A stretch of DNA of 64,000 bases from an uncultured Gammaproteobacteria bacterium. GTDB lineage: Bacteria; Pseudomonadota; Gammaproteobacteria; DRJJ01. Of the stretch, positions 4,459 to 49,811 are shown piece by piece. The stretch lies in NCBI GenBank assembly GCA_947258795.1, contig CAMYJU010000016.1:21178-85177 (forward strand), given 5' to 3'. A program made the translations under genes and the position numbers. Under the pieces are notes generated by a model. It was not told the origin of the DNA. It did not search any database and was given only the letters and a program-made list of their open reading frames with translations. Numbering within the stretch: position 1 is the first letter of the stretch; the number at the start of each line of letters is the position of its first letter.

Positions 4459-4821
4459 ATGTCAGAATCCATTAACCAGCACATACATCCGGAGAGCGCC
4501 CGTAGTCGTGAAGTACTGTTTCCATATGCCCCTGAAGGCTGGACCAGTGCCGATGCAGAGGTCCAGGCCAGCAAGGAAAATATCGTCATGGAGGAAACCC
4601 ACTGGCGCACCATTATCGCCTTGCAGGAGTATTATACCAAACACCAGCACGTGCAAATGCGTGAACTGCACGATGCCCTGGATGAAAAGTTTCATATCGA
4701 CGGCGGTATGAAGTATCTGTACTCCGCCTTTCCCGGCGGACCCGTCGCCCAGGGCTGTCGCCTGGCCGGCCTGCCGGTACCCGCCGGTAGTGCAGACCCG
4801 TCCTTTGGCAGCGTTCAATAG
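4459..4821 (+). CDS. DsrC/TusE family sulfur-relay-like protein, CysB present but penultimate CysA replaced (C-terminus GLPVPAGSADPSFGSVQ)
   Basis: 120 aa; EETHW...IIALQEYY...MKYLYSAFPGGPVAQGCRLAGLP aligns with DsrC/TusE consensus E.HW..LR.YY..YLY.LFP.GPAKQAC.IAGLPKPTGCV. Confidence 0.75.
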   Translation: MSESINQHIHPESARSREVLFPYAPEGWTSADAEVQASKENIVMEETHWRTIIALQEYYTKHQHVQMRELHDALDEKFHIDGGMKYLYSAFPGGPVAQGCRLAGLPVPAGSADPSFGSVQ

Positions 4822-14249: not shown

Positions 14250-15014
14250 TCAAAGATCGAATTCAGCACCGCTATATAACTGGTGTAGATTCCGCTCCGA
14301 TATCGCCTCGTGACATTCGTTCATAATAACATCTTCTGAACCGGGCTTGAGATGGGTGATATAGACCTCAGGCTGATGCCTCAACTTGGCCACGTCTGCA
14401 GCCAGTAAGGACGGGCAATAGTGGTAGGCCAGCTTACAGATACTTTTGTCCACATTCGGAAAGGCCGCCTCAATGATCAGAAAGTCCAGCGAACCCAGTG
14501 AATTAAGCGCATCCCACAATACATCATTAGTGGTCGTATCGCCCGTGTACACCAATGTTTTTTCGTCACCTTTAATATGATAGCCCACGGCCGGAATAAC
14601 ATGATTGACCTGCAACATCTGGATAAAGCCACCATCAATCTCACACACCTCGCCAGGTGTCAGCCGATGGTAGTTCAGCACCCCGTCACCGGTGGTCGGT
14701 ATCGCCGTAAAATCAGGCCACAACACGTTGTTGAACATATGTTTGTCGAGTGCATCGATGGTTTCTGGCAAGGCGTGTATGGTCAACGGCGTGTCCAGCA
14801 CATCAAAGATGGTATCAACCAGTAACGGGATGCCACCGACATGATCCAGATGTGAGTGGGTGATATAGATGTCCCGGATCTGGCGTAGTTCATCGAGTTC
14901 CAGATCACACACGCCCGTACCCGCATCGACCAGCGTTTTGTCACCGACGAGTATTGAGGTGGTGCGACGTTGGCCGCCAATTCCGCCACTACATCCCAAT
15001 ATCTTTATCTTCAT
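14250..15014 (-). CDS. Class II 3',5'-cyclic-nucleotide phosphodiesterase (MBL fold)
   Basis: 254 aa; MKIKILGCSGG N-terminus and THSHLDHVGG motif as in class II cAMP PDE family. Confidence 0.8.
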   Translation of the reverse strand: MKIKILGCSGGIGGQRRTTSILVGDKTLVDAGTGVCDLELDELRQIRDIYITHSHLDHVGGIPLLVDTIFDVLDTPLTIHALPETIDALDKHMFNNVLWPDFTAIPTTGDGVLNYHRLTPGEVCEIDGGFIQMLQVNHVIPAVGYHIKGDEKTLVYTGDTTTNDVLWDALNSLGSLDFLIIEAAFPNVDKSICKLAYHYCPSLLAADVAKLRHQPEVYITHLKPGSEDVIMNECHEAISERNLHQLYSGAEFDL

Positions 15015-20015: not shown

Positions 20016-20461
20016 AAATACAACAAAGACTCGCCACACTAATAATGATATGCCTGGCCTTACTGGTCAGCACGTCGGTCCTTGCCGAAGGGGGCCTGTC
20101 TGTTAGTGATGCCTGGGTGCGTGAAGCACCACCTGGTGCACATGTGCAGGCCGGCTTTGTCATCATTCATAACGACAGCGATCAGGAGCGTAAGATCACC
20201 GCCGTACGCAGCCCGGCCTTTGGCAGTATCGAAATTCACAACATGCACATGGAAGACGGCATGATGCGCATGCAAAAGCAGGATACCCTGATTATACCAC
20301 CTAACAGTACCCTGAAGCTGGAGCCCGGGTCTTTCCACCTGATGCTGTTTGACCCGGTCAGGTACCTGAAAGCCGGGGACAGTGTTCACTTTACCCTGTC
20401 CACCGGGATGGGCACCTGCATAGACATCAAGGCCCCGGTTAAAACCGGTATGGGCAATTGA
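20012..20461 (+). CDS. Periplasmic copper chaperone PCu(A)C (DUF461)
   Basis: 149 aa; signal peptide, HxM/Met-rich motif (IHNMHMEDGMMRM); 4-bp overlap with SCO gene. Confidence 0.78.
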   Translation: MKIQQRLATLIMICLALLVSTSVLAEGGLSVSDAWVREAPPGAHVQAGFVIIHNDSDQERKITAVRSPAFGSIEIHNMHMEDGMMRMQKQDTLIIPPNSTLKLEPGSFHLMLFDPVRYLKAGDSVHFTLSTGMGTCIDIKAPVKTGMGN

Positions 20462-21336
20462 GTATGAAAACCAAACCCCTGGTACTGCTACAAACCCTGC
20501 TGCCGTTACATGCTCTGTCACGCGTCATGCACTGGCTGATGCGCAGCTCAAAACTGCCTGGCCACAACTTTTTTTTGCGCCTGGCGATACGCAAATACAA
20601 TATTCGGCTTGACGAGGTACTGGAACCCGATGTATTCGACCGCGACATCTACCCGGATCTGAACAGCTGCTTCACACGTGCACTCAAACCGGATGCGCGA
20701 CCGATCGCAAAGGGTGCGCAGGAAATCTGTTCACCTGCCGACGGCACCATCAGTGCGATCGGTCATCTGAACGATACCCTGCTGCTACAGGCCAAGGGAC
20801 ATGAATACACCCTGGGCGAACTGCTCGCCAACGATATCGGACTGATCAACCAGTTTCGAAACGGCGCTTACGCAACCATCTATTTATCACCACGCGATTA
20901 CCACCGCGTGCATATCCCGTTGACCGGCAAACTCACCAAAATGGTACATGTGCCGGGACGGCTGTTCAGCGTATCCCCGTATAACATGCAAAACATACCT
21001 CGTCTGTTCGCACGTAACGAGCGGGTCATCTCGGTATTCAATACAGCCATCGGACCGATGGTCGTTATCATGGTCGGTGCAATATTTGTCGGCTCAATCG
21101 AAACCGTCTGGGCAGGCGAAGTCACCCCGCCGGCCGGCAAGGAAATCAGCACCTCGATCTATCCGGAATCCGCCGGAGACAGCTTGAACAAGGGTGAAGA
21201 AATGGGTCGTTTTAACATGGGCTCTACCGTTATCGTACTGTTTCCGGAAAACACGGTTAAATGGAATGCCGATCGACAGGCGGACAGTAAAGTCAGGATG
21301 GGGGAGAATTTGGGGGAGTTAACTACGGGCGGTTAA
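20458..21336 (+). CDS. psd: Phosphatidylserine decarboxylase proenzyme
   Basis: 292 aa; LSPRDYHRVHIP and self-cleavage LGST-like site (MGSTV); 4-bp overlap with upstream gene. Confidence 0.93.
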   Translation: MSMKTKPLVLLQTLLPLHALSRVMHWLMRSSKLPGHNFFLRLAIRKYNIRLDEVLEPDVFDRDIYPDLNSCFTRALKPDARPIAKGAQEICSPADGTISAIGHLNDTLLLQAKGHEYTLGELLANDIGLINQFRNGAYATIYLSPRDYHRVHIPLTGKLTKMVHVPGRLFSVSPYNMQNIPRLFARNERVISVFNTAIGPMVVIMVGAIFVGSIETVWAGEVTPPAGKEISTSIYPESAGDSLNKGEEMGRFNMGSTVIVLFPENTVKWNADRQADSKVRMGENLGELTTGG

Positions 21337-21556: not shown

Positions 21557-21916
21557 TCATGAAATCTGATGCACCTCGGCAGCATGGTGTTCTTCCAAAC
21601 CCCGATGGGCGCTATGGAAAATATCCTGCAGCAGGCGTAGATCCTTCACCGTGAAGTCCATGAACATGATGCCGATACCATCGCCGTGACGATGCACCAC
21701 ACGGCCTGGTATCAGGCGGCTTTCTTTCACATCAACCGGATTCTGTATGACGACTTCGATCTTGCTGTTCAGTTTCATGTCCGGGTCGGGATAAACAATG
21801 TACATGCCACCCAGCCCCAGGTCACGGGTGCGGCAACCCTCGGTGATCTGGTCCTTGTAATAGAGATTCACCGCGAGCTCGATCGGCCTTCTTTCACTCC
21901 ACCTGTATTCTTCCAT
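21557..21916 (-). CDS. Single-domain PilZ c-di-GMP binding protein
   Basis: ORF 21557..21994, likely start MEEYRW; ERRPIE (RxxxR-like) and DLGLGG (DxSxxG-like) motifs. Confidence 0.65.
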   Translation of the reverse strand: MEEYRWSERRPIELAVNLYYKDQITEGCRTRDLGLGGMYIVYPDPDMKLNSKIEVVIQNPVDVKESRLIPGRVVHRHGDGIGIMFMDFTVKDLRLLQDIFHSAHRGLEEHHAAEVHQIS

Positions 21917-22025
21917 AGTCGCTACTCCCTGTTCGCTGGACTGGCAGCCGGTACTCAATAAGCGAAATGTAGTGCATTTGGGCCTTATAAGCAAAGACCG
22001 CTTGCCGACCGGGTCACACTATCGA

Positions 22026-23009
22026 TCATGCCCGTGTGAATGAAAATGCCATTACTTCATCTATGGTTTGAGCGCCGGTCAGCGCCATCAACACACGCTC
22101 CAGTCCGAGTGCAACCCCGGCACAATCCGGCAGCCCGGCCTCCAGTGCGGCCAGCAATAACGGGTCCGGTGTGTGGGCGTCCAGACCCAGTTGTTGGCGC
22201 TGTTGCTGGTCGCGTTGCATGCGCCGGCGCTGTTCGTGAGCATCGGCCAGTTCATGGAAGCCGTTAGCCAGCTCTATCCCTCCGACATAGACCTCGAAGC
22301 GCTCAGCGACTTCGGGTTGCCCTGGCCGAACACGCGCCAGCGAGGCCTGGCTGGCCGGATAGTCATAAACAAAACAGATTTCCTGCGCATCAAGCTGCGG
22401 CTCGACCTGGTGACTCAGGATCAGGTTCAACCAGTCATCGCGATCTTGCAGCTGGTCGGCATGTTCGAGCTGTATCCCCAGTGCCGTTGCCCGCTCGCGT
22501 AGCACCTCAATATCGTCCCGATGCGGATCGATACCGGTATACTGCGCAAACAACTCCGCATAGCTCACCCGCCTGAACTTGCTAAAACCGGCCTCATCCA
22601 GACCGATAGACAATAACAATTCCTGTACCTGGTCCATCAACTGATGATGATCGAAGCCCGGTTGATACCATTCCAGCATGGTGAATTCGGGGTTGTGGTG
22701 GCGTCCACGCTCGTCACGGCGGAACACCCGGCTGACCTGATACACCGGACCACAACCCGCCGCAAGCAGGCGCTTCATATGAAATTCAGGTGATGTTTGC
22801 AGGAACAGCTGCTGCGCCCCATGATAGGTAGCAAAGCTGTGCATGTGTACCTCGGTACTGGTGCTGTGGGCCAGTACCGGGGTTTCGACTTCAAGGAATT
22901 GCCGTTCAGAGAAAAACTGCCGGATATCGGTCAGCAGTTGAGCCCGGCGCTGCAGCATCTGCAGTGACGCCCCGGGTTGCCACGCAGCTGTGTCCTTATC
23001 CGCTGGCAT
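22026..23009 (-). CDS. epmA: EF-P--(R)-beta-lysine ligase
   Basis: 327 aa class-II aaRS catalytic-core paralogue (PoxA/GenX). Confidence 0.93.
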   Translation of the reverse strand: MPADKDTAAWQPGASLQMLQRRAQLLTDIRQFFSERQFLEVETPVLAHSTSTEVHMHSFATYHGAQQLFLQTSPEFHMKRLLAAGCGPVYQVSRVFRRDERGRHHNPEFTMLEWYQPGFDHHQLMDQVQELLLSIGLDEAGFSKFRRVSYAELFAQYTGIDPHRDDIEVLRERATALGIQLEHADQLQDRDDWLNLILSHQVEPQLDAQEICFVYDYPASQASLARVRPGQPEVAERFEVYVGGIELANGFHELADAHEQRRRMQRDQQQRQQLGLDAHTPDPLLLAALEAGLPDCAGVALGLERVLMALTGAQTIDEVMAFSFTRA

Positions 23010-23043
23010 TACCGATCAACGAATGACGCATATAGATTGCTTA

Positions 23044-23612
23044 TCAGTCCTTCGCCCGCGATACGTACTCACCGGTGCGGGTGTCGACCCTGATCACTTC
23101 ACCTTCATCGATAAACAACGGCACGCGTACGACCGCTCCGGTCTCCAGTGTGGCCGGTTTACCGCCACCACCCGAGGTATCGCCACGCACACCCGGATCG
23201 GTCTCGGTGATGGTCAGATTGACGAAATTCGGCGGCACTATCGAGATCGGCTCACCGTTCCACAGGGTAACCAGACAGGTATCCTGCTCTTTTAGCCATT
23301 TGTGACTGTCACCGACGGCGGCCTCATCGGCGGATAGCTGCTCATAGCTTTCCGGATCCATGAAATGCCAGTGCGTACCGTCGTTGTACAGGTATTGCAT
23401 TTCGGTTTCCATGACATCGGCCGCCTCGACCGATTCCCCCGACTTATAGGTTCGGTCGATCACGCGCCCGGTTTTCAGATAGCGCAGCTTGACCCGGTTA
23501 AAGGCCTGCCCCTTGCCGGGTTTGACGAATTCATTTTCAACAATTGCGCACGGCTCGCCGTCGATCATCAGCTTTAGACCCGAACGAAATTCACTAGTAT
23601 TATATGTTGCCA
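23044..23612 (-). CDS. efp: Elongation factor P
   Basis: Internal start [14 protein letters not shown] within ORF 23044..23817; KPGKGQAF loop carrying the modified Lys. Confidence 0.95.
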
Positions 23613-23652
23613 TGAATAGCCTACCTACGTCAGGATTAATCTCAATCTGCCT

Positions 23653-24669
23653 ATGATAACCCGAACTGCCACCCTGAGTCAGATACCGGACTGGCAAATT
23701 CAGCTTGCCAATGCGATCCGTGATATCGATGAACTGTTTGGATTGATAGGTCTCGCCCGTGAGGCGGTCCCGGAGCTGCTGAACGCACAGTCCGACTTCC
23801 CGATCAGGATTCCGCATGCCTATGCACGCCGCATCCAGCCTGGCAAGGCCGATGATCCCTTGTTGAGACAGGTGCTACCACTGTTACAGGAGTCACTGGC
23901 AGTGCCGGGTTACAGCCCGGACCCGGTCAGAGACCGGAATCAAATGCCTGTGCCGGGCCTGCTGCATAAATATCACGGCCGTGTGCTGCTAACCCTGACC
24001 GGCGCCTGCGCGATCCACTGCCGGTACTGTTTCCGGCGGCACTTCCCTTATACAGAGGCCAATCCGTGCGGTCAGGACTGGCCGCACACACTGGAATATA
24101 TCCGTCAGCAAACAGATATCGACGAGGTGATCCTCAGCGGCGGCGACCCGTTGAGCCTGAGTGATCAGCGCCTGGCCGGCATCAGCGAGGAACTGGGCAC
24201 GATTCCGCACCTCAAACGCCTGCGCATCCATAGCCGCCTGCCGGTGGTGATCCCGGACCGGGTCACGTCCCAGGTGACTGACTGGCTGGCCAGCTGCCGC
24301 TTGCAAACCATTATCGTGTTACATGTCAATCATGCGCAGGAACTGAATGAACACACTCGCCTGGCGTTTCAATGTTTGCGCGACGCCACTGACAGCCTGC
24401 TAAATCAAACGGTGCTGTTAAAAGATATCAATGATCAGGCCGGCACCCTGGCCACACTCAGTGAGGCGCTGTTCGATCAGGGCGTCATGCCTTATTACCT
24501 GCACTGCCTGGACCCGGTCGCCGGAGCGGCCCATTTTGACCTGCCTGAAAGCCGGATCAGTGAAATCTGGCAACAATTACGCGCAATCCTGCCGGGTTAC
24601 CTGCTACCGCGCCTGGTCAGGGAGATCCCGGGCGCATCCGCTAAAATCCCTTTTGAAATCATGGATTAA
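23653..24669 (+). CDS. epmB: EF-P beta-lysylation protein, lysine 2,3-aminomutase paralogue
   Basis: 338 aa; radical [11 protein letters not shown] motif. Confidence 0.92.
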
Positions 24670-24849: not shown

Positions 24850-26700
24850 GTGTTACAGCAATCCAATCCATTTGGCCTGTTAGTACCCGTCAGGAAGGTT
24901 CCGACCGATCCGGGTCTGGGCCTGCGTGCGAAGGAGGTCTCGGCATGGTTGCATGGCTTGCCACTGGCCAACCCGGATATCCTTGGCAAGACGCTGTACC
25001 GCCGTATCGCGGTAGAAAACCGCACCGAACACAAACCCAAGGACAGATTGCAGTTTATCGAGCAGCTTAGGGAGCAGGTGCTTTACTGCGTTGATCATTT
25101 CAAATCCAGCCTGGTCAAATCATCGTTGCCGATGAGCTCACGCAAGCTGAAGAATGCCACCCAGGCACGCGCCCTGCTCACCGAACTAACCAATGCCTAC
25201 AAGATCGCGGTGGTCGACCTGCTGCAGGAGACCCGAATCGATGACAAGGCTGTTGCACTGGCCAGTCAACGTGCAATCCACAGTCTGACCAGACTGTTAA
25301 TGGTCAATTATGCCCATTACACCCCGGCGCCACAGCATATCTGGATGGAATTACACCGCTTGTACCACCTGGCAGAGTCACGCGAACAGCTCAATCTCAG
25401 AATCAGGGATGAAATGCAGCCCTCCAGGCGCAGTTCGGTTGAACTGGAATACAAACGCATCCTGCTGTTATCGCTGGCCAATCCATATCGCCTGCGTCGC
25501 GATGACATCGCGCCGGTCTATAACGCCCTGCAGGAATGGGCACAGCAAGTCAAAATTGAACGTAACCCGCAGTTTGCCGATAACCGGCCCTGCTTTGTCA
25601 TCGATCTGGATTCAGACCAGGCACCGAACCAGATCCAGCAAAACCGGGTCACCGACCAGGTTTATAACCGCTATATAAACCTGGACCGGCTCAACAAACT
25701 GCTCAGGAAAAACCTGGATTCAGTAAAAAAGAAAAACAAAATATCAGGCAGCTTGAGCCACAACACCTTATACAAGCTGCTGATGACCTGGGATATCAGT
25801 AGCAAACGGGTATTCAGCCGCACAAGCAAACTGGGCAAACTGGATATCACCGTGGGCATCAATAATACCCATGATGAAATCGACCACGATATCGTGGAAA
25901 GCAGTCTGCTCGAGACAGCCGTTCTGACACCGGCAACGACAGACACCGGGAAACACGAACAATTACCACCGCCACTGGAACTGATCGATATCCAGACCGG
26001 GTTCACGGTAGAAAAGGTGCAGCCCACAGAAAAGCAGCTCGATGACCCATGGGACAAACAGCTACTGTACAAACAGGACACTCACAATGATGAGCAGAAC
26101 CACAAACCGGCCGGTCACAAGACCACCGAGCGTTTCGGTCCGGCCAAACAGACCTGGCGTATGCTGAATATCAGCGCGGGTGGTTATTGCATCATGTGGG
26201 ACAAGGACACACCGTGCCCGACACAGGTTGGTGAGATCGTCGGCATACAAGAGACCAGTCCGGGTGGCAAACAGATCTGGAGTATCGGCATCGTACGCTG
26301 GATGGAATACCGGCCCTCGAACGGTCTGAAAATGGGTATACAGCTGATTGCGCCCAATGCAATGGCCGTTACCACCTATCCCTATGGCCTCAAGCAGCCT
26401 GACGTGGAGAAAACACTGCAGCTACCGGATCTTCCTGTGATCGACCAGCCGGCCAGCCTGGTTACCTCTACCAGTCACTACGAGGTCGGGGATCGGCTGA
26501 TCGTCGACCATCATGGCCACACCACTGTGGTACAGCTGAGCGAAGTTCTGGAACAAACCGGAAACATAACCCGTTTCCAGTACCATGAATTGAATAACAA
26601 GGCCGTCACCGGCAACCTGCCCAGGACTGATACCGGCGACACCCAGGAAATCAGACTGAGCGATTTCCCGGATGATTACTGGAACTGGCCGGAATCCTGA
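24850..26700 (+). CDS. Hypothetical protein with C-terminal PilZ-like region
   Basis: 616 aa; no recognisable N-terminal domain; residues ~435-520 contain R...WRMLNISAGG (NxSxxG) followed by beta-rich segment. Confidence 0.5.
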   Translation: MLQQSNPFGLLVPVRKVPTDPGLGLRAKEVSAWLHGLPLANPDILGKTLYRRIAVENRTEHKPKDRLQFIEQLREQVLYCVDHFKSSLVKSSLPMSSRKLKNATQARALLTELTNAYKIAVVDLLQETRIDDKAVALASQRAIHSLTRLLMVNYAHYTPAPQHIWMELHRLYHLAESREQLNLRIRDEMQPSRRSSVELEYKRILLLSLANPYRLRRDDIAPVYNALQEWAQQVKIERNPQFADNRPCFVIDLDSDQAPNQIQQNRVTDQVYNRYINLDRLNKLLRKNLDSVKKKNKISGSLSHNTLYKLLMTWDISSKRVFSRTSKLGKLDITVGINNTHDEIDHDIVESSLLETAVLTPATTDTGKHEQLPPPLELIDIQTGFTVEKVQPTEKQLDDPWDKQLLYKQDTHNDEQNHKPAGHKTTERFGPAKQTWRMLNISAGGYCIMWDKDTPCPTQVGEIVGIQETSPGGKQIWSIGIVRWMEYRPSNGLKMGIQLIAPNAMAVTTYPYGLKQPDVEKTLQLPDLPVIDQPASLVTSTSHYEVGDRLIVDHHGHTTVVQLSEVLEQTGNITRFQYHELNNKAVTGNLPRTDTGDTQEIRLSDFPDDYWNWPES

Positions 26701-26716: not shown

Positions 26717-27238
26717 CTAATATACCTGGGTAAAAATAGACGGGTAAATAATATTACTGCCCTTCCCCAGGGTGTTATCTGTCAATTCCATCGCACTGAA
26801 CAGATCGAGCGAGATCGGCAGGCTGCAATGCAGATCCCAGTCTGATGCGGGTTTGAAGCCCAGCCGATGATAGTAATCCGGGTGCCCGGCCACAACAACG
26901 GCGCCATAACCCAGTTCTTTTGCCTTGTTGATTGCGTGTTCGACCAGCTCGGTCCCGATACCACGATGGGACTGTGACGGAACCACCGCCATCGGTGCCA
27001 GCGCGAGTATATCCACCCCGTCACGTTCATTTTGCAAACGCACCCGGGTGAGCAATATGTGCCCAACGATACGTTTGTTAAATTCGGCTACCAGTGACAG
27101 TTCGGGAATATAATTACTCGATTGCCTGAGCTGCTCTATCAGTCCTACTTCGTCATCACCCTCGAAGGCACTCAGATGTACGACATCGATAGCCTTGATA
27201 TCATCAGCATGCTCTGACCTGACAGTAATCTGATCCAT
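26717..27238 (-). CDS. GNAT family N-acetyltransferase
   Basis: 173 aa; acetyl-CoA motif A region RGIGTELVEHAINKAKELGY. Confidence 0.85.
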   Translation of the reverse strand: MDQITVRSEHADDIKAIDVVHLSAFEGDDEVGLIEQLRQSSNYIPELSLVAEFNKRIVGHILLTRVRLQNERDGVDILALAPMAVVPSQSHRGIGTELVEHAINKAKELGYGAVVVAGHPDYYHRLGFKPASDWDLHCSLPISLDLFSAMELTDNTLGKGSNIIYPSIFTQVY

Positions 27239-27664: not shown

Positions 27665-29806
27665 TTGGCTGATTACAGTCTTATATCCCGGGCTTTGGAG
27701 GCTGGTGTGGCAAAAGACAGAACTTTGCGGGTCATTATTGCCGAGGACTCGCAAAATACTGCTGAGAACCTGATTAGCATACTACGTAATGCAGGTCATG
27801 CCGTGCGTCAGCATTTGCTCAATGACGAAGCCACTCTGCTTGAGACCCTGAAGGAACAGCCGATCGATGTCATCTTCCTCGGTCTGAAAACCGAGGAACC
27901 CACCCTGGACCAGACCACCCGGCACCTTAAGCAACTGAAACTTGACCTGCCGATACTGGCGCTAGCCGATGAATATGATATCGAACTTGCCACAGATATC
28001 ATTCGCCAGGGCGCATCCGACCTGGTGGCCAGGGATCATCCCGAACATCTGCAACTGGTGGTCAAGCGTGAAATCTCACACCTGAAACAGCACCGCGAAC
28101 TGGCTGGTGCCAAACGCGTCGCGCTTGAATCCAGCAAACGTGCTGACGCCCTGCTGGACACCTCGGCAGATGCAATTACCTACGTACATGACGGCATGCA
28201 CGTCTATGCGAACCCGGTTTACCTGCGCATGTTCGGTTTCAAGAGCCTGGAGGATATCGAAGGTACACCGATCATGGACATGGTGGCGCCCGCAGATCAC
28301 AACAAGTTGAAAGATTTCCTGCGCTCCCGGCAGTCTGATGAAAGCAAGATGTCCAGTGAGCTGGATATTACCGGGCTAAAAACCGGTGGCGAGGAGTTCA
28401 ATGCCTCAATGGAATTCACGCCCGCCACCTTTGAGGGTGAACCCTGTACACAGATTATTATCCGCGCACGCCTGGGTGATAGCGAGGAACTGGAAAAACA
28501 ACTGAAGAGCCTGACCCGCAAGGACATGCTGACCGGGCTGGACAATCGTCAGCATTTCATGGATATGATTGACCGGGATCTGACACAGTTCCAGAACCAC
28601 GATAAGACCGGGGCGGTACTGTTCATCACCCCGGACAAGTTCAAGGAGATAAAAGAGAATATCGGCATGAGCGGCGCCGACCAGGTAACCCAGGAAATCG
28701 CCACGATCATGAAAGACTCGTTGCCCGATGCCTTGCGCACGGCGCGTTTCAGTGATTATTGCCTGACCGCCTTCCTGTCTGGTGAAAACAACAACGATAT
28801 CCTGCAAGCCGCCGAGATATTCCGGAAGAGTGCCGCGGATCATATCTATACAGTCGACGACAAGTCCATTTCGATTACCTGCAGTATCGGTGTCAGTATC
28901 GTTGGACCACTGGACAAGGCCGCGCAGGACGTTGTTTCCTATGCCGACCTGGCCTGCGAAATGGCCATGAAAGAAGGGGGCAACCGGGTACATTTACATA
29001 ACCCGATCGCGGACCGGGATGCTGAAAACCAGCGCGATGAACGCTGGCTAAATCTGGTACAACATGCCCTCAAAGATGACCTGTTCCAGTTAGTTTATCA
29101 ACCGGTAGCCAGTCTGCACGGTGAGCCCGGTGAACAGTATGAAGTACTGATCCGGATATCCGATCCGGGTGGTGAGGACGTGCTGCCCAGCCAGTTCCTG
29201 TCGGTTGCGAGCAAACACAACCTGATGACGCATATCGACCGCTGGGTCGTCAGTCATGCCCTGGTGGCACTGGAGGAACATCGAAAACAGGCGCATGACA
29301 CCCTGTTTTTAATCAAGATCTCGACCGATAGCCTGATCGAGGCCGAGTTCACCAGCTGGCTTCAGGAACAGATCAAGAAAAGCAAGTTACCCGGGGAATG
29401 CCTGGTGTTTGAAATATCTGCAGCCAGTATACACCTGCATATGAATACAGCCGCCGAGTTCGGCACCATGCTGTCCAAGCATGAGTGCCAGCTGGCAATT
29501 GAGCATTTCAAGGCCGATCATGATGCCTATCAGATGCTCAAATACGTCAAGCCTAACTTTATCAAAATTGACGGGCAGCTGATCCGCGAACTCTCGGCAA
29601 ATCCCGATAATCAGGAAACGGTCAAGAAGCTCGCTGGCAAGGCCTCGTCCATGGGTATCTCAACCATTGCACACTTTGTCGAGGACGCCAGTAGCCTGGC
29701 CGTGTTGTGGCAATGCGGCATCAACTACATTCAGGGTAACTTCCTGCAGGCACCGTCAGCGAAGATGGACTACGATTTCGAAGGCGAGGCCGAAGACGAG
29801 GCCTGA
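27665..29806 (+). CDS. FimX-like degenerate REC-PAS-GGDEF-EAL c-di-GMP receptor protein
   Basis: 713 aa, TTG/GTG start; receiver-like N-terminus lacking phospho-Asp (IDVIFLGLK); GGDEF site is SDYC; EAL is EVL; DDFGTG replaced by EHFKAD. Confidence 0.7.
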   Translation: MADYSLISRALEAGVAKDRTLRVIIAEDSQNTAENLISILRNAGHAVRQHLLNDEATLLETLKEQPIDVIFLGLKTEEPTLDQTTRHLKQLKLDLPILALADEYDIELATDIIRQGASDLVARDHPEHLQLVVKREISHLKQHRELAGAKRVALESSKRADALLDTSADAITYVHDGMHVYANPVYLRMFGFKSLEDIEGTPIMDMVAPADHNKLKDFLRSRQSDESKMSSELDITGLKTGGEEFNASMEFTPATFEGEPCTQIIIRARLGDSEELEKQLKSLTRKDMLTGLDNRQHFMDMIDRDLTQFQNHDKTGAVLFITPDKFKEIKENIGMSGADQVTQEIATIMKDSLPDALRTARFSDYCLTAFLSGENNNDILQAAEIFRKSAADHIYTVDDKSISITCSIGVSIVGPLDKAAQDVVSYADLACEMAMKEGGNRVHLHNPIADRDAENQRDERWLNLVQHALKDDLFQLVYQPVASLHGEPGEQYEVLIRISDPGGEDVLPSQFLSVASKHNLMTHIDRWVVSHALVALEEHRKQAHDTLFLIKISTDSLIEAEFTSWLQEQIKKSKLPGECLVFEISAASIHLHMNTAAEFGTMLSKHECQLAIEHFKADHDAYQMLKYVKPNFIKIDGQLIRELSANPDNQETVKKLAGKASSMGISTIAHFVEDASSLAVLWQCGINYIQGNFLQAPSAKMDYDFEGEAEDEA

Positions 29807-29815
29807 CCCGGCACC

Positions 29816-31057
29816 CTAATCCAGCACGTGTGATACAAGGCCATCCGCAAGCTTGGGCTCGAACCAGGTGGATTTGGGTGGCATCACCTCATTCGCATCA
29901 GCAACGGCCATCAGGTCTTCCAGCCTGGTTGGATACAGCGAAAAGGCCACAGCCATCTCGCCGCTGTCGACGCGCCTCTCCAGTTCAGTCAGGCCACGTA
30001 TCCCACCGACAAAATCGATACGCTTGTCACGACGTGGGTCACTGATACCCAGGATGGGCTCGATCAGTTCATTCGCAAGCAGGCTGACATCCAGACGACC
30101 CACCGGGTCATCGGTCGGTATCCTGTCAGTAGACAGTTGCAGCTTATACCATTGACCATCCAGGTACATACCAAACTCGGATGGTGCAGCGGGTTTAACC
30201 GGCTGACCTGAAGAAGTCACGCTAAAGCGTTCCTTTACCCTGGACAGGAAATCCTCTCCACTCAGTCCGTTCAGATCAGAGATCATCCGGTTGTAATCGA
30301 GTATTTGCATCTGGTTATCCGGAAAAATCACCGACAGGAAATAGTCACTGGATTCGTCACCTGAATGATCAAGGTTCGACTCCTTGCGCATCGCTCCCAC
30401 ACGCGAACCGGCAGCCGAACGATGATGACCGTCAGCAATATAAAGACAGTCCATGGCATCAAAATACCGACTGATCTGATCAATCGCATCCTGGTCATCG
30501 AGCACCCAGAAAGTATGCTGGACATTATCTGCCGCAGTCAGATCGTACAGGGGGTCCTGCTGCATGGCTTTGCCAACCAGCTCGTCTACCCCGGCATGAT
30601 GGCGGTAGGTCAGGAATACCGGACCGGTTTGCGCATTCAGTGCATCAATCTGTCTGACACGATCATTCTCCTTGTCCGGCCGCGTAAACTCGTGCTTGCG
30701 GATACGATTGCTGTCGTAATCCTTGACCGACGCAACCGCAACCAGGCCTGTCTGACTATGACCGTTCATAATCAGGCGGTAGACATAATAAACCGCCTGC
30801 TGCTCACGAATCAGAACTCCCTTGCTGACCATGTTGTTCAGGTTTTCCGCCCCTTTCGCATATACAGCGGCATCATATGGATCCGTCCCTTCCGGCAGAT
30901 CTATTTCAGGCTTGGATATATGCAGGAAGCTCCACGGCCGTCCAACAGCCATTTCCCGGGCCTCGGCGGTATTCAGTACATCATAGGGCGGTGCAACGAC
31001 ATCTTGTTCATGTCCGCTTGCTGGCCGCAGTCCGCGAAAGGGTTTTATCAACGACAT
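29816..31057 (-). CDS. DUF1015 family protein
   Basis: 413 aa; MSLIKPFRGLRPA...VVAPPYDV N-terminus typical of DUF1015. Confidence 0.8.
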   Translation of the reverse strand: MSLIKPFRGLRPASGHEQDVVAPPYDVLNTAEAREMAVGRPWSFLHISKPEIDLPEGTDPYDAAVYAKGAENLNNMVSKGVLIREQQAVYYVYRLIMNGHSQTGLVAVASVKDYDSNRIRKHEFTRPDKENDRVRQIDALNAQTGPVFLTYRHHAGVDELVGKAMQQDPLYDLTAADNVQHTFWVLDDQDAIDQISRYFDAMDCLYIADGHHRSAAGSRVGAMRKESNLDHSGDESSDYFLSVIFPDNQMQILDYNRMISDLNGLSGEDFLSRVKERFSVTSSGQPVKPAAPSEFGMYLDGQWYKLQLSTDRIPTDDPVGRLDVSLLANELIEPILGISDPRRDKRIDFVGGIRGLTELERRVDSGEMAVAFSLYPTRLEDLMAVADANEVMPPKSTWFEPKLADGLVSHVLD

Positions 31058-31499: not shown

Positions 31500-33068
31500 G
31501 TGTTTCTGTCGAATAAAAAACGAGCTGGGCAAAACGGCAATATTCGTCAAGGTATAAGGGATAGCAAATCAATTAATAAGGATGCTGTCTACCGACACGT
31601 CTGGCGCTTCTGGCCACGCTATATTCCAATCGCATTAAAGTTGTCACTGGCCATAGGGGTGATGTTGAGTCTGGTCATGTTTTTACTTGGCGCGATCATT
31701 ATCCATAATCAGACCGAATTGTTGAACCACCAGATACTGAGTAACGGCCGCATCGTCGTCAAACAAATGGCCGAATCAGCCAAGGAACCCATACTGGCGA
31801 ATGATGTACTGCAACTGGATGTACTGACCAATAGCCTGGCCAGTTCCGATGATATTATTGGCACCTCTATCTACTCGGCGGAAGGCAAGTCCCTGTCCAG
31901 CGCCGGCCCCCAGCCCTTTGAACCCTATGCCCCACTGGCCGGCCATGACATGACCTACCTGAAAAGATCGCCGATTACCGTACCATGGACCTGGCAGGAT
32001 TCAGCCTATGGCGACCTGGATGCGATATCCTACATCAGCCCGATCAGCTACAAGAACATTACCGCCGGCTATGTACTGACTACCTTCAGCCGCAAGAAAA
32101 TGACCAGTAGTATCCGCGATTCGATCCATTCCATCGTGCTGGCCACCCTGTTCCTGATACCGTTGGGTATCGCACTTTCCTATTTCATTTCCAAGAACTT
32201 TGCCCGTCCGCTGCAGGAACTGATGGATGCCAGCCGCGCGATAGACCAGGGCGAATACCGCTATCGCCTGACTGAAAAACGCAATGATGAAATCGGTTAT
32301 CTGATGTCGGCTTTTAATAGCATGGCCCACGGTATGCTACAGAAAAAACAGGTGGAAGAGGCCTTCGCCAAACACGTGCCTGCCAGTGTGGTCAAAAATG
32401 TCCTGGCCAATCTGAATGGCATACAGCTTGGTGGCACCCATACCCAGGCCAGTGTCATGTTTCTGGATATCGAAGGATTCACATCCAAATCCGAAAGCCT
32501 CTCACCGACCGAGGTAGGTGAATTGCTGAACGAATTCTTTACCTATATATCGGATACCGTACACCTCTATAAAGGTACCATCGACAAGTATATGGGTGAT
32601 TGTGCCATGCTGGTGTTCGGGGTACCTGAACCGGATGACGACCATATATTCCACTCGATTTCCTATGCGGTTTTCTTCCAGAAACTGCTGGTCAGAATAA
32701 ATAATATACGCTTGTCCCGCAGTAAGCTCCCGGTCAAATTCCGCATTGGCCTGAATACCGGTGAAGTACTGGCCGGTAATATGGGCTCAATCGATCGTGT
32801 ACAGTTCACCGTCGTCGGCGATACCGTTAACCTGGCGTCACGCCTGTGCTCCTTGTCCAACCCTGAACAGGTTCTGATTACCGAAGAAACCTACAATATC
32901 CCTATGGTACGTAAACGTATCGTCGCTACACGGTTTGACACCATACATGTCCGGGGTAAAGCAAGTCCGGTAAGCCTGTATCAGGTACATGATGTGGTTG
33001 AACCATACCGGACTGACATGGAACAGGAAATCCGCAGAATCTTACTTAAAACCCAACAGACACAATGA
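31500..33068 (+). CDS. Membrane-bound class III adenylate/guanylate cyclase with periplasmic sensor and HAMP domain
   Basis: 522 aa, GTG start (true start uncertain); TM1-periplasmic region-TM2-HAMP; cyclase motifs VMFLDIEGFT, KYMGDCAMLVFG, FTVVGDTVNLASRL. Confidence 0.85.
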   Translation: MFLSNKKRAGQNGNIRQGIRDSKSINKDAVYRHVWRFWPRYIPIALKLSLAIGVMLSLVMFLLGAIIIHNQTELLNHQILSNGRIVVKQMAESAKEPILANDVLQLDVLTNSLASSDDIIGTSIYSAEGKSLSSAGPQPFEPYAPLAGHDMTYLKRSPITVPWTWQDSAYGDLDAISYISPISYKNITAGYVLTTFSRKKMTSSIRDSIHSIVLATLFLIPLGIALSYFISKNFARPLQELMDASRAIDQGEYRYRLTEKRNDEIGYLMSAFNSMAHGMLQKKQVEEAFAKHVPASVVKNVLANLNGIQLGGTHTQASVMFLDIEGFTSKSESLSPTEVGELLNEFFTYISDTVHLYKGTIDKYMGDCAMLVFGVPEPDDDHIFHSISYAVFFQKLLVRINNIRLSRSKLPVKFRIGLNTGEVLAGNMGSIDRVQFTVVGDTVNLASRLCSLSNPEQVLITEETYNIPMVRKRIVATRFDTIHVRGKASPVSLYQVHDVVEPYRTDMEQEIRRILLKTQQTQ

Positions 33069-34181: not shown

Positions 34182-36434
34182 TCACGACTCAACCAGCAGC
34201 GCATCCACCTTACGGAATCCCCGGGCCAGCTTGCTGCCCCGCCTTCCCCGCTCGCCGGCATATTCATCCACTTCATCCGCCTTCATGGTCTTGTGGCGCT
34301 GGCCTGACAGCAGGGTCAGTTTCTCACCATCCTGTATCGTGCAAATTGCACTGACATATTCCTCTCGGGCGGCGGCTCGCCTGGATGGAATGCCAATAAT
34401 CTTGTTGCCCTTGCCCTTGGGTAAAACTGGCAACTCGGAACTATCAACCACCAGCATGTTGCCCTCGGTAGTCACCACAACCACCCAGTCCTTTTCCAGA
34501 TCACGTACCATGACCGGCGGTAACAGGCGACATCCTTTTGGTACCGAAACAACTTTCTTGCCAGTCTTGTTACGGGTAAGCATCTCTTCCAGTTTGATAA
34601 AGAACCCGTACCCGGCATCAGATGCCAGCAGGACATGGTCATCCGGTTCACCCATGATCACACCGACAAACTCCGCACCCGGTGGAGTCTTGAAACGCCC
34701 GGTCAGTGGCTCCCCCTGTCCACGCGCCGATGGCAGGCTGTGCGCCATCAGGGCGTAGCTACGCCCACTGCTGTCCAGAAACACAGCTAACTGGTTCGAA
34801 CGGCCCTGTGCCGATGCCTGGTAGGCATCACCTGACTTGTATGCCAGGCTGCGCCCGTCGACATCATGTCCCTTTGCTGCCCTCGCCCAGCCACGCTGTG
34901 ACAGTACCACGGTCTGGTTTTCGCTGGGCACCAGGTCGGTTTCATCCAGTGCCTGCGCAGCCTCACGGGATACGATCGGTGAACGTCGGTCATCACCATA
35001 GTCCCCGGCATCGGCCTTGATCTCTTTCTTGAGCAGGGTCTGCATACGCTGCTTTGAACCCAGCGTCTTTTTCAGTTGATCACGTTCCTCGACCAGCGCC
35101 TGCTGTTCTTCACGTATTTTCATTTCTTCCAGACGGGCCAGTTGACGCAGTCGCGTATCCAGGATGTAGTCGGCCTGCTCTTCTGACAGTTTGAAGCGTT
35201 TGATCAGGACCGGCTTGGGCTTGTCCTCCTTGCGGATAATCGCGATAACCTCGTCAAGGTTTAGGAAAACAATTAACGCGGCATCAAGCAGGTGCAGTCG
35301 TTTATTGACCTTGTCCAGACGAAACTCCAGGCGGCGTCTGACGGTTTCCAGGCGGAACTTTAACCATTGCTTGAGCAGACTGCGCAGATCGAACACCTGT
35401 GGACGACCTTCCAGGCCGATCATGTTCATATTGACACGATAGCTGCGCTCCAGATCGGTGGTTGCAAACAGGTGCGCCATCAAACGTTTGGTGTCCACCC
35501 GGTTGGAACGAGTTACGACAACCAGGCGTACCGGGTTTTCATGGTCTGACTCGTCACGCAGGTCCTCCACCAGCGGCAGTTTTTTCGCCTGCATCTGCGC
35601 TGCAATCTGCTCCAGTATACGTGCACCCGAGACCTGGTAGGGCAGCGCGGTGATAATGATGTCACTGCCTTCCTTTTCAAACACCGCACGGCTACGTATC
35701 GAGCCATGACCGGTCAGGTACGTATTAAGAATTTCACTACGCGGGGTAATGATCTCGGCCTCGGTCGGATAATCCGGGCCCTTGATATGCTCACACAGTT
35801 GTTCAACCGTCGACTTGGGCTGGTCCAGCAGCCTAATACAGGCACTGGCCACCTCACGTAGATTGTGCGGCGGGATATCCGTCGCCATACCGACAGCGAT
35901 TCCACTACCGCCATTCAACAGTACATTGGGCAGACGTGCCGGTAATAATTCCGGCTCTTGCAGGGTACCATCGAAATTCGGGCCCCAGTCCACGGTACCC
36001 TGGCCGAGCTCCGCCAGCAGCAACTGCGCATAGCCGGCCATACGCGATTCGGTATAGCGCATTGCCGCAAAGGACTTAGGGTCGTCCTGCGACCCCCAGT
36101 TCCCCTGACCATCGACCAGTGGGTAACGGTACGAGAACGGCTGCGCCATCAATACCATGGCCTCATAGCAGGCGCTATCGCCATGCGGGTGGAACTTACC
36201 CAGTACATCCCCGACCGTACGTGCCGATTTCTTGTACTTGGATGTCGCATTCAAACCCAATTCAGACATCGCGTAGATAATGCGCCGCTGCACCGGTTTC
36301 AGACCATCGGCCAGGTTAGGCAACGCACGATCAAGAATCACATACATGGAGTAGTCCAGGTAGGCCTTCTCGGTATACTGTTTCAATGGCATTTTTTCGA
36401 GGCCATCGAAATCAAGCGGCATGTTATCGGACAT
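34182..36434 (-). CDS. parC: DNA topoisomerase IV subunit A
   Basis: 750 aa; [13 protein letters not shown] and active-site Tyr region; length fits ParC rather than GyrA. Confidence 0.93.
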
Positions 36435-36480
36435 GCGTTTCTATCCTCATAAAGTTATCTTGGAGCGCTAGCTTCCTGAT

Positions 36481-36570
36481 CGCTATGTTCTTTACTGACC
36501 GTCGGCCGCATGGACGCGGCCGTCGAGCCTACATGGATGTATTTACGGCGTGTCAGCAAAGAACATAGCG
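36481..36570. repeat. 90-bp nested imperfect palindrome in the parE-parC intergenic spacer
   Basis: Outer arms cgctatgttctttactgac / gtcagcaaagaacatagcg (1 mismatch); inner hairpin cggccgc-atggac-gcggccg. Confidence 0.7.
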
Positions 36571-36592
36571 GACAGGGAGCGAAATATTTACA

Positions 36593-38479
36593 CTACACAA
36601 CCGCAAGATCGCCCTTCTTCTCCAGCCATGCCTTGCGGTCTGATGAACGTTTTTTGGACAACAACATATCCATCAGCTGATCTGTTTTATCGGCTGAGCC
36701 CAGCGTCAGTTGCACCAGTCTGCGCGTATCCGGGTCCATGGTAGTTTCACGCAGTTGCATCGGATTCATCTCACCCAGCCCCTTGAAGCGCTGTACATCC
36801 ACCTTGCCCTTGAGCTTCTCGGCTTCGATACGGTCCAGTACGCCCTGTTTCTCGCTGTCATCCAGTGCATAGTAAACATCCTTGCCCACATCGACACGGT
36901 ACAATGGCGGCATGGCTACATAGACATGCCCTTCCTCGACCAGCGCGCGGAAATGGCGCAGGAACAGCGCGCATAACAACGTCGCGATATGAGCACCGTC
37001 AGAATCGGCGTCCGCCAGTATGCAGATACGATTGTAGCGCAAACCTGACAGGTTCGGATTACCCGGGTCCACACCGATGGCCTGGGCGATGTCGTGTACT
37101 TCCTGTGATCCCAGTACCGAGGCCGAGTCAACTTCCCAGGTATTGAGTATCTTGCCACGCAATGGCATCACTGCCTGGTATTCACGATTGCGCGCCTGCT
37201 TCGCAGAACCGCCGGCCGAATCGCCTTCCACCAGAAACAGTTCGGTACGACCGGCGTCCTGGGAACTGCAGTCGGCCAGCTTGCCGGGCAAGGCCGGACC
37301 ACTGGTTACCTTCTTGCGCACCACTTTTTTACCAGCACGCAGACGCTGCTGGGCATTCTGTATCGCCAGCATGGCTATTTTCTCGCCGGTCTCGCTATGC
37401 TGATTCAACCACAGCCCAAACGCATCCTTGACCACACCGGACACAAATGCCGCACATTCACGCGATGACAGCCGTTCCTTGGTTTGTCCGGAAAATTGCG
37501 GATCAGACAGCTTGACCGATAGCACATAACTTACGCGATCCCAGACATCCTCGGGTGCAATGCGCACACCTCGTGGTACCAGGTTCCTGAATTCGCAGAA
37601 TTCGCGTACCGCCTCGGTCAGGCCGGTACGCAGACCATTCACGTGTGTGCCGCCCTGCGCGGTCGGGATCAGGTTAACATAGCTCTCCATCACCCCTTCG
37701 CCACCATCCGGTAACCAGACGACTGCCCAGTCCGCCATTTCAGAACGACCCTGCATATGACCGGAAAAAGGCTCTTCCGGCAGGCAGCTGGCGCCTGACT
37801 GCTCATCCTTCAGGTACTGGGTCAGGCCATCCTGGTATTGCCATTCCTGCTCTTCCCCGGAGGCCTCGTCACTGAATTTAACCAGCAAACCCGGGCACAG
37901 GACCGCCTTGGCCCGCAGCAGATGTTTGAGTTTAAGGACAGAGATACGGGGCGAATCAAAATACTTCGGATCAGGCCAGAAACGCACGGTGGTCCCGGTA
38001 TTGCGCTTGCCGACCGTACCCACCACCTCCAGAGGAGTCTTGCGCTGACCATGCGCAAACGAGATATTGTATTCTTTGCCTCCCCGGCGTACCCAAACCT
38101 CCATATGTTTGGACAAAGCGTTGACGACCGAAACACCGACACCGTGCAAACCACCCGAGTAGGTATAATTCTTGTCAGAAAATTTACCGCCGGCATGCAG
38201 GCGGGTCAGGATCACCTCGACACCCGGGAGCTTCAGCTGCGGGTGCTTGTCCACGGGCATACCACGGCCGTCGTCACGCACCTCAACCGAACCGTCCTTG
38301 TACAGCGAGACGTCTATGGTCCTGGCATAACCGCTGATCGCCTCATCGACACTGTTGTCGACTACCTCCTGCGCCAGATGGTTGGGACGTGTCGTATCGG
38401 TATACATCCCGGGGCGTTTGCGCACCGGTTCCAGGCCGGTGAGCACCTCTATCGAGGCCGCATCATAATCGGTCGTCAT
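36593..38479 (-). CDS. parE: DNA topoisomerase IV subunit B
   Basis: 628 aa; GHKL ATPase, Toprim EGDSAGG; adjacent to parC. Confidence 0.93.
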   Translation of the reverse strand: MTTDYDAASIEVLTGLEPVRKRPGMYTDTTRPNHLAQEVVDNSVDEAISGYARTIDVSLYKDGSVEVRDDGRGMPVDKHPQLKLPGVEVILTRLHAGGKFSDKNYTYSGGLHGVGVSVVNALSKHMEVWVRRGGKEYNISFAHGQRKTPLEVVGTVGKRNTGTTVRFWPDPKYFDSPRISVLKLKHLLRAKAVLCPGLLVKFSDEASGEEQEWQYQDGLTQYLKDEQSGASCLPEEPFSGHMQGRSEMADWAVVWLPDGGEGVMESYVNLIPTAQGGTHVNGLRTGLTEAVREFCEFRNLVPRGVRIAPEDVWDRVSYVLSVKLSDPQFSGQTKERLSSRECAAFVSGVVKDAFGLWLNQHSETGEKIAMLAIQNAQQRLRAGKKVVRKKVTSGPALPGKLADCSSQDAGRTELFLVEGDSAGGSAKQARNREYQAVMPLRGKILNTWEVDSASVLGSQEVHDIAQAIGVDPGNPNLSGLRYNRICILADADSDGAHIATLLCALFLRHFRALVEEGHVYVAMPPLYRVDVGKDVYYALDDSEKQGVLDRIEAEKLKGKVDVQRFKGLGEMNPMQLRETTMDPDTRRLVQLTLGSADKTDQLMDMLLSKKRSSDRKAWLEKKGDLAVV

Positions 38480-49300: not shown

Positions 49301-49696
49301 ACCACAGAAAACCACCGCTACTCCCGGAAACAAACTGTCCCGGTACTGACGCAGGAATTCCAGCGCATTGTTATCAGCCGCAATAATCAGTGCGGGCTTT
49401 TGATCCCGGTATTTTTGCCGGTAGAGACTGACCAGGGTGGGGAAAACAATGTTGGTCGCATGCTGTTTGCTGTCCATGTATTCGATCAGTAGCCGAATCT
49501 CCTGATCACCTTCCTGCAAGGCCTTTTTTACACCACGTGTTATTCCGTCAGTCCACGGATAACCCTGGTGATAGGAGTGTAGCAGCAGTACGGTAGGGGC
49601 CTGTTCAACAGCAGTCACCGCCGGACAGGTAAAGGGAAACAGCAGAAAGAGCGGCAACAGCCATTGATAAAGTCTGAAGTTTAAATGATGGCGCAT
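46325..49696 (-). CDS. Multidomain c-di-GMP turnover protein: periplasmic substrate-binding-like sensor, TM, PAS, GAF, GGDEF, EAL
   Basis: ORF 46325..49741 (start uncertain, possibly MRHHLNF signal peptide); intact RLGGDEF; EALLRW and DDFGTGYSSLAYLKRMP EAL motifs. Confidence 0.88.
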   Translation of the reverse strand: MRHHLNFRLYQWLLPLFLLFPFTCPAVTAVEQAPTVLLLHSYHQGYPWTDGITRGVKKALQEGDQEIRLLIEYMDSKQHATNIVFPTLVSLYRQKYRDQKPALIIAADNNALEFLRQYRDSLFPGVAVVFCGINNFGYDLISGLDPVTGVIEDNDLLGTVNVAYRLHPERNRLAVVSDATTTGAAILEKLRQIKHQLPSGLEVLELENLDSHVLARELAALDEQAIILNLSLFKTRDGRSFTLNEGVAFIKKYTDAPVYGTWDSFLGSGAVGGKLTSSVLQGEVAVSLALQLLKGVSVDKVPIVQESPNAYMFDYRELLAFDIPMDRLPPASTVEYLPQSLYWKYKSEVWIVAVVLVLLLVMVFSLYALLIYRKRIDEALRNSEARYRNLFEQNIDPVILLNEDGQIFDVNQRAELFFSTRKGEMTGKRLEDFSAISMRTNTQTSSSAMSVYLQQALKGGEYRFEWSTVSDMGHVIDVEVTLSRVALPGKRRYLLAQVRDVNERKQAGLLLNFQRRILELIATGGDLQSVLNALCYEVEKMVPGVVCVLHLFNEESGFLELKAAPNIPLEFGNEMKFMLPEMGTGSTATAFCLDEPVYVDDTSEDPRWAQARDVVDEFKIHACWAIPVKSDKGSMLGTLSVIHFKPARPDSYQKRILETATRMAGIAVNRRNIEAHVHHMANHDPLTDLPNRNLLLDHLYMAIMMAKRHEVLGGLLYLDLDHFKNINDSLGHALGDHLLKGVANRLISAAGKNMTVSRLGGDEFVMLIPDVGYERHAAGKKIKQLADSIRGLLNEPFKVEGRELHVSPSIGVVLFPVDADTPDDVLRHADTAMYRAKAAGRNAVQFYLPAMAAEASERLMLEGYLRHAIEFNEMFLLYQPQVNESGRMVGVEALLRWQHPEMGLIPPTQFIHILEEMGLIMEVGAWVIEQACRQMKTWSGDERFGNIRHMSVNVSPRQFMQPDFVHQVAVCIDDSGVDPAALTLELTEGIVVSNIESTIEKMHALKALGVELAIDDFGTGYSSLAYLKRMPLDILKIDKAFVIDLLVDTEDAAIVQTIIAMSEHLSLDVIAEGVETAEQLRFLHNKGCTLYQGEYFSDPLTLEQLSAYVDDSATREKMAFVLK

Positions 49697-49811
49697 ATCA
49701 GCATTCCTGGCTTGCCTGCCTTGTCCAGAAGCCGTATGCAAAACCCGGTGTCAGACCGCTCCTGTGTCTTTTTGCACCTTGATTGTATTAATAACAGGCC
49801 GGAAACACAAT

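Follow-up and report, generated by a model that had tools for sequence, protein, structure and literature searches.

The window analysed here is a 64,000-nucleotide stretch of contig CAMYJU010000016.1 (assembly GCA_947258795.1) from an uncultured gammaproteobacterium. It carries a fimX-like gene on the forward strand (27707-29806), which encodes 699 amino acids from its probable GTG start. The gene is probably an ortholog of fimX both by position and by sequence, and its product would be a receptor for cyclic di-GMP (c-di-GMP) that acts on type IV pili. Judged from the sequence, the protein most likely has no catalytic activity and senses c-di-GMP in order to act on the machinery that extends type IV pili. 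It is a routine, hitherto unnamed FimX protein and not a new kind of system; what is added to present knowledge is a FimW homolog nearby and a fimW-fimX linkage that is conserved outside Pseudomonas.

FimX of Pseudomonas aeruginosa and of Xanthomonas binds c-di-GMP at approximately 0.1-0.2 uM through a degenerate EAL domain and has no meaningful cyclase or phosphodiesterase activity. The protein is polar and promotes pilus extension driven by PilB; PilB is bound directly by P. aeruginosa FimX and through PilZ by Xanthomonas FimX. FimW is a second c-di-GMP-dependent activator of pilus assembly which localises to the pole, and its gene lies beside fimX (PMC8389850, PMC5595344, PMC11656802, PMC10212136, PMC12564702).

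Three independent lines of evidence identify the window protein as FimX: solved structures, full-length alignment and a structure model. Firstly, in a phmmer search of all PDB chains the top match is P. aeruginosa FimX (4j40; 269 bits, E 1.1e-78) and the second is the GGDEF-EAL region of Xanthomonas citri FimX (7lkq; 252 bits, E 1.3e-73). PA0861/RbdA follows at 166 bits; MorA, PA0575, DosP, LapD and RocR reach 105 bits or less. Secondly, a BLASTP alignment with full-length P. aeruginosa FimX (PA4959, database protein P0122, 691 amino acids; PDB 3HV8, 4J40, 4AFY) joins residues 19-705 to residues 6-686 with 36% identity, six gaps and an E value of 4e-154. Thirdly, an AlphaFold2 model built from 57 homologs (mean predicted local distance difference test score 84) shows four folded domains with a long helix connecting them. 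The EAL domain of this model superposes on FimX EAL crystal structures with a template modelling (TM) score of 0.93-0.94, a root-mean-square deviation (rmsd) of 1.4-1.5 A and 39-40% identity; on other EAL domains the TM score is 0.83-0.90 and the rmsd is 2.0-2.6 A. The full-length Foldseek ranking is headed by the multi-domain proteins PA0861 and DosP through alignment length, and only the per-domain TM scores and rmsd values are informative. NCBIfam holds neither a FimX nor a FimW model, and the equivalog matches of the window protein to that database fall far under their cutoffs.

Full-length homologs number in the hundreds, far beyond chance. The nearest relatives are encoded in metagenome-assembled genomes labelled Gammaproteobacteria HyVt-414, Thiohalobacter, Thiogranum and Chromatiales; the closest related protein, from HyVt-414, is 78% identical.

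The longest open reading frame (ORF) spans 27665-29806 on the forward strand and encodes 713 amino acids from a TTG codon; residue numbers given here follow this 713-residue form. The true start is probably the GTG at 27707. It is preferred because a GGAGG ribosome-binding site, read from the sequence at 27697-27701 on the same strand, lies five nucleotides before it, because an identical database protein (P0001) is 699 amino acids long, and because homologs begin with MAKDRTLRV. An antisense ORF of 195 amino acids within the gene (28406-28993) is taken as spurious.

Four Pfam domains follow one another along the forward strand. The pseudo-receiver (REC; residues 23-124, 27731-28036) matches Response_reg with 31.0 bits, just over the cutoff of 30.2. 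The PAS domain (residues 161-267, 28145-28465) matches PAS and PAS_9. A degenerate GGDEF domain (residues 287-441, 28523-28987; 80 bits) and a degenerate EAL domain (residues 465-697, 29057-29755; 178 bits) complete the protein. The REC-PAS-GGDEF-EAL architecture of FimX had been proposed in an initial annotation made from the sequence; the order of the Pfam domains and the end-to-end alignment with P. aeruginosa FimX bear this out. Within the FimX family no domain is better conserved than PAS, which has a near-invariant core (DAITYVHDGMHVYAN; DAITYVHDGMH-YAN). The PAS domain is 48% identical to that of P. aeruginosa FimX, compared with 36% overall.

Motif positions were set by alignment with CheY, CheB, the cyclase DosC and the phosphodiesterase DosP of Escherichia coli K-12. 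The alignment also took in the protein encoded at 46325-49741 in the window, P. aeruginosa FimX, the EAL region of X. citri FimX and three relatives. The initial annotation had reported glycine at the phosphoacceptor position of the receiver, SDYC in place of GGDEF, EVL in place of EAL and EHFKAD in place of DDFGTG; translation of the coordinates and the alignment give the same residues at the same positions. All four motifs lie on the forward strand: IDVIFLGLK at 27863-27889, SDYCL at 28751-28765 at the A-site of the GGDEF domain, EVLIR at 29141-29155 at the EAL position, and EHFKAD at 29501-29518 at the DDFGTG position.

In the receiver, E27 and D28 occupy the positions of CheY D12 and D13; alanine is found at T87 and arginine at K109. 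Strand 3 ends in G73 (codon at 27881-27883), which aligns with CheY D57, and has no aspartate there. Among the residues tallied for 237 family members, the D57 equivalent is alanine, serine, threonine or glycine and never aspartate. On this alignment, the receiver cannot be phosphorylated on the canonical aspartate. The GGDEF domain shows a similar loss. SDYCL stands at the position held by GGDEF in DosC and by GDSIF in P. aeruginosa FimX, the first metal-binding aspartate is threonine, and the RxxD I-site is absent from the aligned position, which reads PDAL. By sequence, the domain is without its catalytic signature and its A-site is destroyed.

EAL residues were scored in a 240-sequence alignment, with tallies over the 237 family members (119 in the clade of the window protein, 118 in the Pseudomonas clade). 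This alignment reproduces the published P. aeruginosa FimX numbering (Q461/E475/L477/R479/D507/K616/E654/Q671/Y673; PMC3527489), which validates it. The initial annotation had suggested alignment to P. aeruginosa and Xanthomonas FimX with scoring of the catalytic residues. When this is done, five of the ten residues essential for hydrolysis remain: E493, R497, E583, K634 and Q690. The glutamate at position 3 is replaced by S516, the metal-ligand asparagine at position 4 by K551, the second aspartate at position 7 by H614 and the proposed general-base glutamate at position 9 by H670. Position 6, the first aspartate of DDFGTG, is changed conservatively to E613. In this alignment DosP and the 1138-residue protein encoded at 46325-49741 retain ten of ten essential residues, which shows that the degeneracy is real and peculiar to the fimX-like gene.

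The residues used for binding are retained. The ExLxR motif is intact as E493-V-L495-I-R497, and Q479, D525 and E673 are also kept. Of the c-di-GMP contacts of P. aeruginosa FimX (Q461, L477, R479, D507, E654 and Y673), the window protein shares five of six (Q479, L495, R497, D525 and E673). The EAL domain, as read from the alignment, thus keeps ExLxR and other FimX c-di-GMP contacts while lacking metal-binding and general-base residues. Across the family, Q479, E493, R497, D525 and K634 are invariant (237/237); L495 is leucine and Q690 glutamine in 233 proteins each.

Catalytic EAL positions, by contrast, vary between FimX lineages. The asparagine position holds lysine in all 119 clade members, histidine in 112 of the 118 Pseudomonas-clade proteins and arginine in X. 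citri; this basic residue may take the metal's place in holding the phosphate. The Asp-Asp pair is Glu-His in the window protein; X. citri has Glu-Gln there, and most Pseudomonas-clade proteins have Ser-Gln. A typical clade member keeps seven of the ten catalytic residues, and the sublineage of the window protein is more degenerate. Fixed binding residues together with varying catalytic positions fit a domain which is selected for binding and not for catalysis.

The window protein resembles P. aeruginosa FimX in domain order, in length (699 and 691 amino acids), in lacking the receiver aspartate, in its degenerate GGDEF domain and in the EVLxR motif. Both proteins have lost the asparagine, the second aspartate and the general-base glutamate of the EAL domain, and both keep the contact residues Q, L, R, D and E. 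They differ in how the catalytic site has decayed: P. aeruginosa FimX has histidine where the window protein has lysine at the asparagine position, glutamine where the window protein keeps E583, SQ in place of EH at the DD pair, and proline in place of histidine at the general base. In addition, the contact Y673 of P. aeruginosa is replaced by asparagine, and a conserved loop glycine by K616, in the window protein.

Xanthomonas citri/campestris FimX (PDB 7LKQ, 4FOU and 4F48; known in a PilB-PilZ-FimX complex) also has a degenerate EAL domain with a basic residue at the asparagine position and glutamate as the first residue of the DD pair (EQFGSG, compared with EHFKAD); it differs in having QAFLR where the window protein has EVLIR. 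LapD-type receptors likewise sense c-di-GMP through an EAL domain that is catalytically dead and has an ExLxR-type motif. However, LapD is a membrane protein with periplasmic and HAMP domains, and its match to the window protein is far weaker (62 bits by phmmer; 123 bits against a cutoff of 1020 in NCBIfam).

If the window protein behaves like the FimX proteins of P. aeruginosa and Xanthomonas, its EAL domain would bind c-di-GMP tightly without meaningful turnover. The ligand-bound protein would then act at the cell pole on the pilus extension ATPase PilB and promote pilus assembly. The initial annotation had envisaged control through PilZ, and this part finds no support in the window. Xanthomonas FimX contacts PilZ through W445, M487, M488 and A493 (PMC11656802). 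Only the tryptophan is kept in the window protein; Met-Met is Asp-Val and alanine is glutamine. P. aeruginosa FimX likewise keeps only one of these four residues, and the PilZ-domain gene nearby is not the pilus PilZ. Since one of four contacts is conserved, a PilZ-bridged mode cannot be assumed. Direct binding to PilB, as in P. aeruginosa, is possible, and the loss of the PilZ contacts makes it the better guess.

Gene order provides further evidence of orthology. On the P. aeruginosa contig the order is rhodanese, psd, a 607-residue FimW_N/FimW_C protein, fimX, a serB-like gene and a gene for an SMP_2 protein, with parC and then parE farther along. Upstream of the fimX-like gene, the window contains SCO1, PCuAC, psd, a PilZ-domain gene, epmA, efp, epmB, a 616-residue fimW homolog and a GNAT gene on the opposite strand. 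Downstream are a DUF1015 gene on the opposite strand, an SMP_2/HAMP/cyclase gene, a TPR gene, parC and parE. The synteny anchors common to the two loci, besides fimW itself and the gene for the SMP_2 protein, are psd (phosphatidylserine decarboxylase; 20458-21336, forward strand) and parC with parE (topoisomerase IV; 34182-38479, reverse strand). Unlike the window, the P. aeruginosa locus has no GNAT gene between fimW and fimX, and has the serB-like gene downstream where the window has DUF1015.

The gene order of the window is also seen in related loci of 47 species-representative genomes, which all belong to uncultured Gammaproteobacteria (Thiohalobacter, Thiogranum, Thiohalobacteraceae, Chromatiales or unclassified). 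Among the 36 loci with enough upstream sequence, fimW is directly upstream of fimX in 29. The GNAT acetyltransferase gene, which in the window lies at 26717-27238 on the reverse strand (Pfam Acetyltransf_1/7/9/10), is found between fimW and fimX in 28 of 36 related loci. The DUF1015 gene (29816-31057, reverse strand; Pfam 369 bits) is convergent with the fimX-like gene and directly downstream of it; it occupies this place in 24 of 38 related loci and serves as a synteny marker for the clade. Taken with the PDB ranking, the full-length alignment and the residue scoring, gene order supports a FimX-type receptor as put forward in the initial annotation.

The fimW homolog is located at 24850-26700 on the forward strand and encodes 616 amino acids. 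It was recognised by a BLASTP comparison with the gene that immediately precedes fimX in P. aeruginosa; the product is 27% identical to P. aeruginosa FimW (PA4958) over its full length (E 1e-53). An identical database protein (P0241) is annotated with PF27104 and PF27125 (FimW_N and FimW_C). The window's FimW homolog has no match, including to PilZ, in NCBIfam or in the copy of Pfam used, which was without FimW_N and FimW_C. It contains a single RxxxR motif (RVFSR, 25807-25821) and a single NxSxxG motif (NISAGG, 26167-26184), 115 residues apart; both are conserved across 32 homologs. Full-length homology, the FimW_N/FimW_C annotation, the two motifs and the place upstream of fimX are all shared with P. 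aeruginosa FimW. The low identity, and the opposite-strand GNAT gene that parts the window homolog from fimX, are points of difference.

The literature lists FimW as one of the P. aeruginosa c-di-GMP effectors with a PilZ domain (PMC12564702). The initial annotation had mentioned two PilZ-type genes near the fimX-like gene. One of these stands as a Pfam PilZ-domain gene (21557-21994); the other is probably the FimW homolog, which has no Pfam PilZ match.

The FimX-like protein probably shares a pathway with FimW, the c-di-GMP receptor encoded nearby. The linkage is present in P. aeruginosa as well as in 29 of 36 informative loci, which suggests, tentatively, that fimW and fimX could encode an ancient pair of c-di-GMP receptors, inherited together and acting jointly on the pilus extension motor. 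A related and equally tentative idea is that the basic residue at the asparagine position could give metal-free, hydrolysis-proof c-di-GMP binding. According to a 2024 review, there is as yet no experimental evidence for joint action of FimW and FimX.

A number of points weigh against a c-di-GMP receptor acting on pili. The loop glycine in the DDFGTG position (29501-29518) is K616 in the window protein. The equivalent residue is glycine in 232 of the 237 FimX-family proteins and threonine in the four closest relatives; lysine is unique to the window protein among the homologs, and could affect c-di-GMP binding or dimerisation. The contact tyrosine Y673 of P. aeruginosa is N692. FimX of Acinetobacter baylyi binds neither c-di-GMP nor GTP (PMC12139848). 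The earliest description of P. aeruginosa FimX was of a phosphodiesterase, and some reports give it weak residual activity (PMC3527489). Finally, no type IV pilus structural or motor gene is found among the ORFs of at least 80 amino acids in the window. This last point is not evidence against a pilus role, since the 22-kb P. aeruginosa fimX locus also contains no pil genes.

The first three of these points bear on the possibility that the window protein is a FimX homolog which no longer binds c-di-GMP and serves only as a scaffold or localisation factor. A. baylyi FimX is of this kind: it has the same architecture and a degenerate receiver, is c-di-GMP-independent and acts via ChpA of the Pil-Chp system (PMC12139848). 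In keeping with such a loss, the window protein departs from consensus at five of 98 near-invariant family positions. However, A. baylyi FimX itself reads EVT and has just 21% identity with P. aeruginosa FimX; EVL-x-R is retained in the window protein, which at 36% identity is much closer to the P. aeruginosa protein. It also retains Q479, D525, K634, E673 and Q690. Asparagine at the Y673 position is the majority state (78 of 119 members) in a clade where all other binding residues are conserved, and the linked FimW with its RxxxR and NxSxxG motifs suggests that c-di-GMP signalling is maintained at the locus. A binding-deficient scaffold is therefore unlikely.

The early description of P. aeruginosa FimX as a phosphodiesterase bears on a different reading, in which the window protein is a slow but working c-di-GMP phosphodiesterase, a 'trigger' enzyme whose turnover matters, as was first proposed for P. 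aeruginosa FimX. Some catalytic residues allow this: the EAL glutamate, the arginine, K634, Q690 and E583, which is lost in Pseudomonas, are kept, and the first aspartate of DDFGTG is still acidic as glutamate. P. aeruginosa FimX itself has a very low kcat on a model substrate (6.4e-4 s-1; PMC3527489). Against slow turnover, the asparagine ligand is lysine, the second aspartate and the general-base glutamate are histidine and position 3 is serine, which leaves five of ten; typical clade members, with seven of ten, are less degenerate than this sublineage. The window also encodes an intact GGDEF-EAL enzyme at 46325-49741, and the degeneracy is specific to the fimX-like gene. A hydrolase whose turnover matters is accordingly very unlikely.

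The idea that the gene is one of many REC-PAS-GGDEF-EAL paralogs, functionally unrelated to FimX and sharing only its domain architecture, can draw on the abundance of GGDEF-EAL proteins, the lack of a FimX model in NCBIfam with equivalog matches far below cutoffs and the lack of pilus genes nearby, but it is rejected as highly improbable: FimX leads every other GGDEF-EAL protein of known structure by more than 85 bits, the alignment to FimX runs end to end through REC and PAS, and gene order is conserved with P. aeruginosa, including a FimW family gene upstream.

As a probable FimX ortholog with a FimW homolog nearby, the window protein extends both families to an uncultured, probably sulfur-oxidising lineage. 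An annotation better than 'EAL domain-containing protein' is now possible. By itself a fimX-like gene matters little; there are two modest leads for research on pilus regulation. The fimW-fimX linkage across distant Gammaproteobacteria argues for one pathway of two c-di-GMP receptors. The conservation pattern separates the residues for sensing from those for catalysis: neither the binding residues nor the PAS core vary and the asparagine position is always basic, while the catalytic EAL residues have decayed differently in different FimX lineages.

The protein used as internal control for motif scoring is encoded at 46325-49741 on the reverse strand. It has 1138 amino acids, with periplasmic-binding-like, PAS, GAF, GGDEF and EAL domains. 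The motifs GGDEF, EALLR, DDFGTG and EGVE are intact; on these motifs, it is probably a real enzyme of c-di-GMP turnover.

The stand-alone PilZ-domain gene is found at 21557-21994 on the reverse strand. The Pfam PilZ match is 42.5 bits for the 145-residue ORF and 43.2 bits for a 119-residue form; the product is probably the latter, starting from the ATG at 21916. The RxxxR and DxSxxG motifs are degenerate (ERRPIE and DLGLGG). It is rejected as a candidate for the pilus PilZ, since a search of the PDB at E<=10 does not match it to the PilZ structures of Xanthomonas. No second Pfam PilZ gene is found among all window ORFs of at least 80 amino acids. In the five related loci with a match (L001, L003, L006, L014 and L033), the small PilZ-domain gene also lies between psd and epmA.

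The genes epmA, efp and epmB (elongation factor P and its lysylation enzymes; 22026-24669) are located between psd and fimW in the window and in most related loci. In P. aeruginosa these genes are not found there, and psd abuts fimW directly. On the downstream side, the gene at 31500-33068 on the forward strand encodes an SMP_2-HAMP-class III nucleotide cyclase, whose N-terminus weakly matches the P. aeruginosa SMP_2 protein encoded in the same place (E 7e-6). A class-II cAMP-phosphodiesterase-like gene is located farther upstream (14250-15014, reverse strand); the window is rich in second-messenger genes.

An Rfam scan of the window gives no matches. ARAGORN places a tRNA-Gly (ACC) at 34780-34854 on the reverse strand, inside the parC coding sequence; as there is no Rfam tRNA at this position, it is probably a false positive. 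At the window edge is a type II secretion protein C gene (63282-63995, reverse strand), which belongs to type II secretion and not to the type IV pilus. A DsrC-like gene at 4459-4821 on the forward strand is consistent with a sulfur-oxidising lifestyle.

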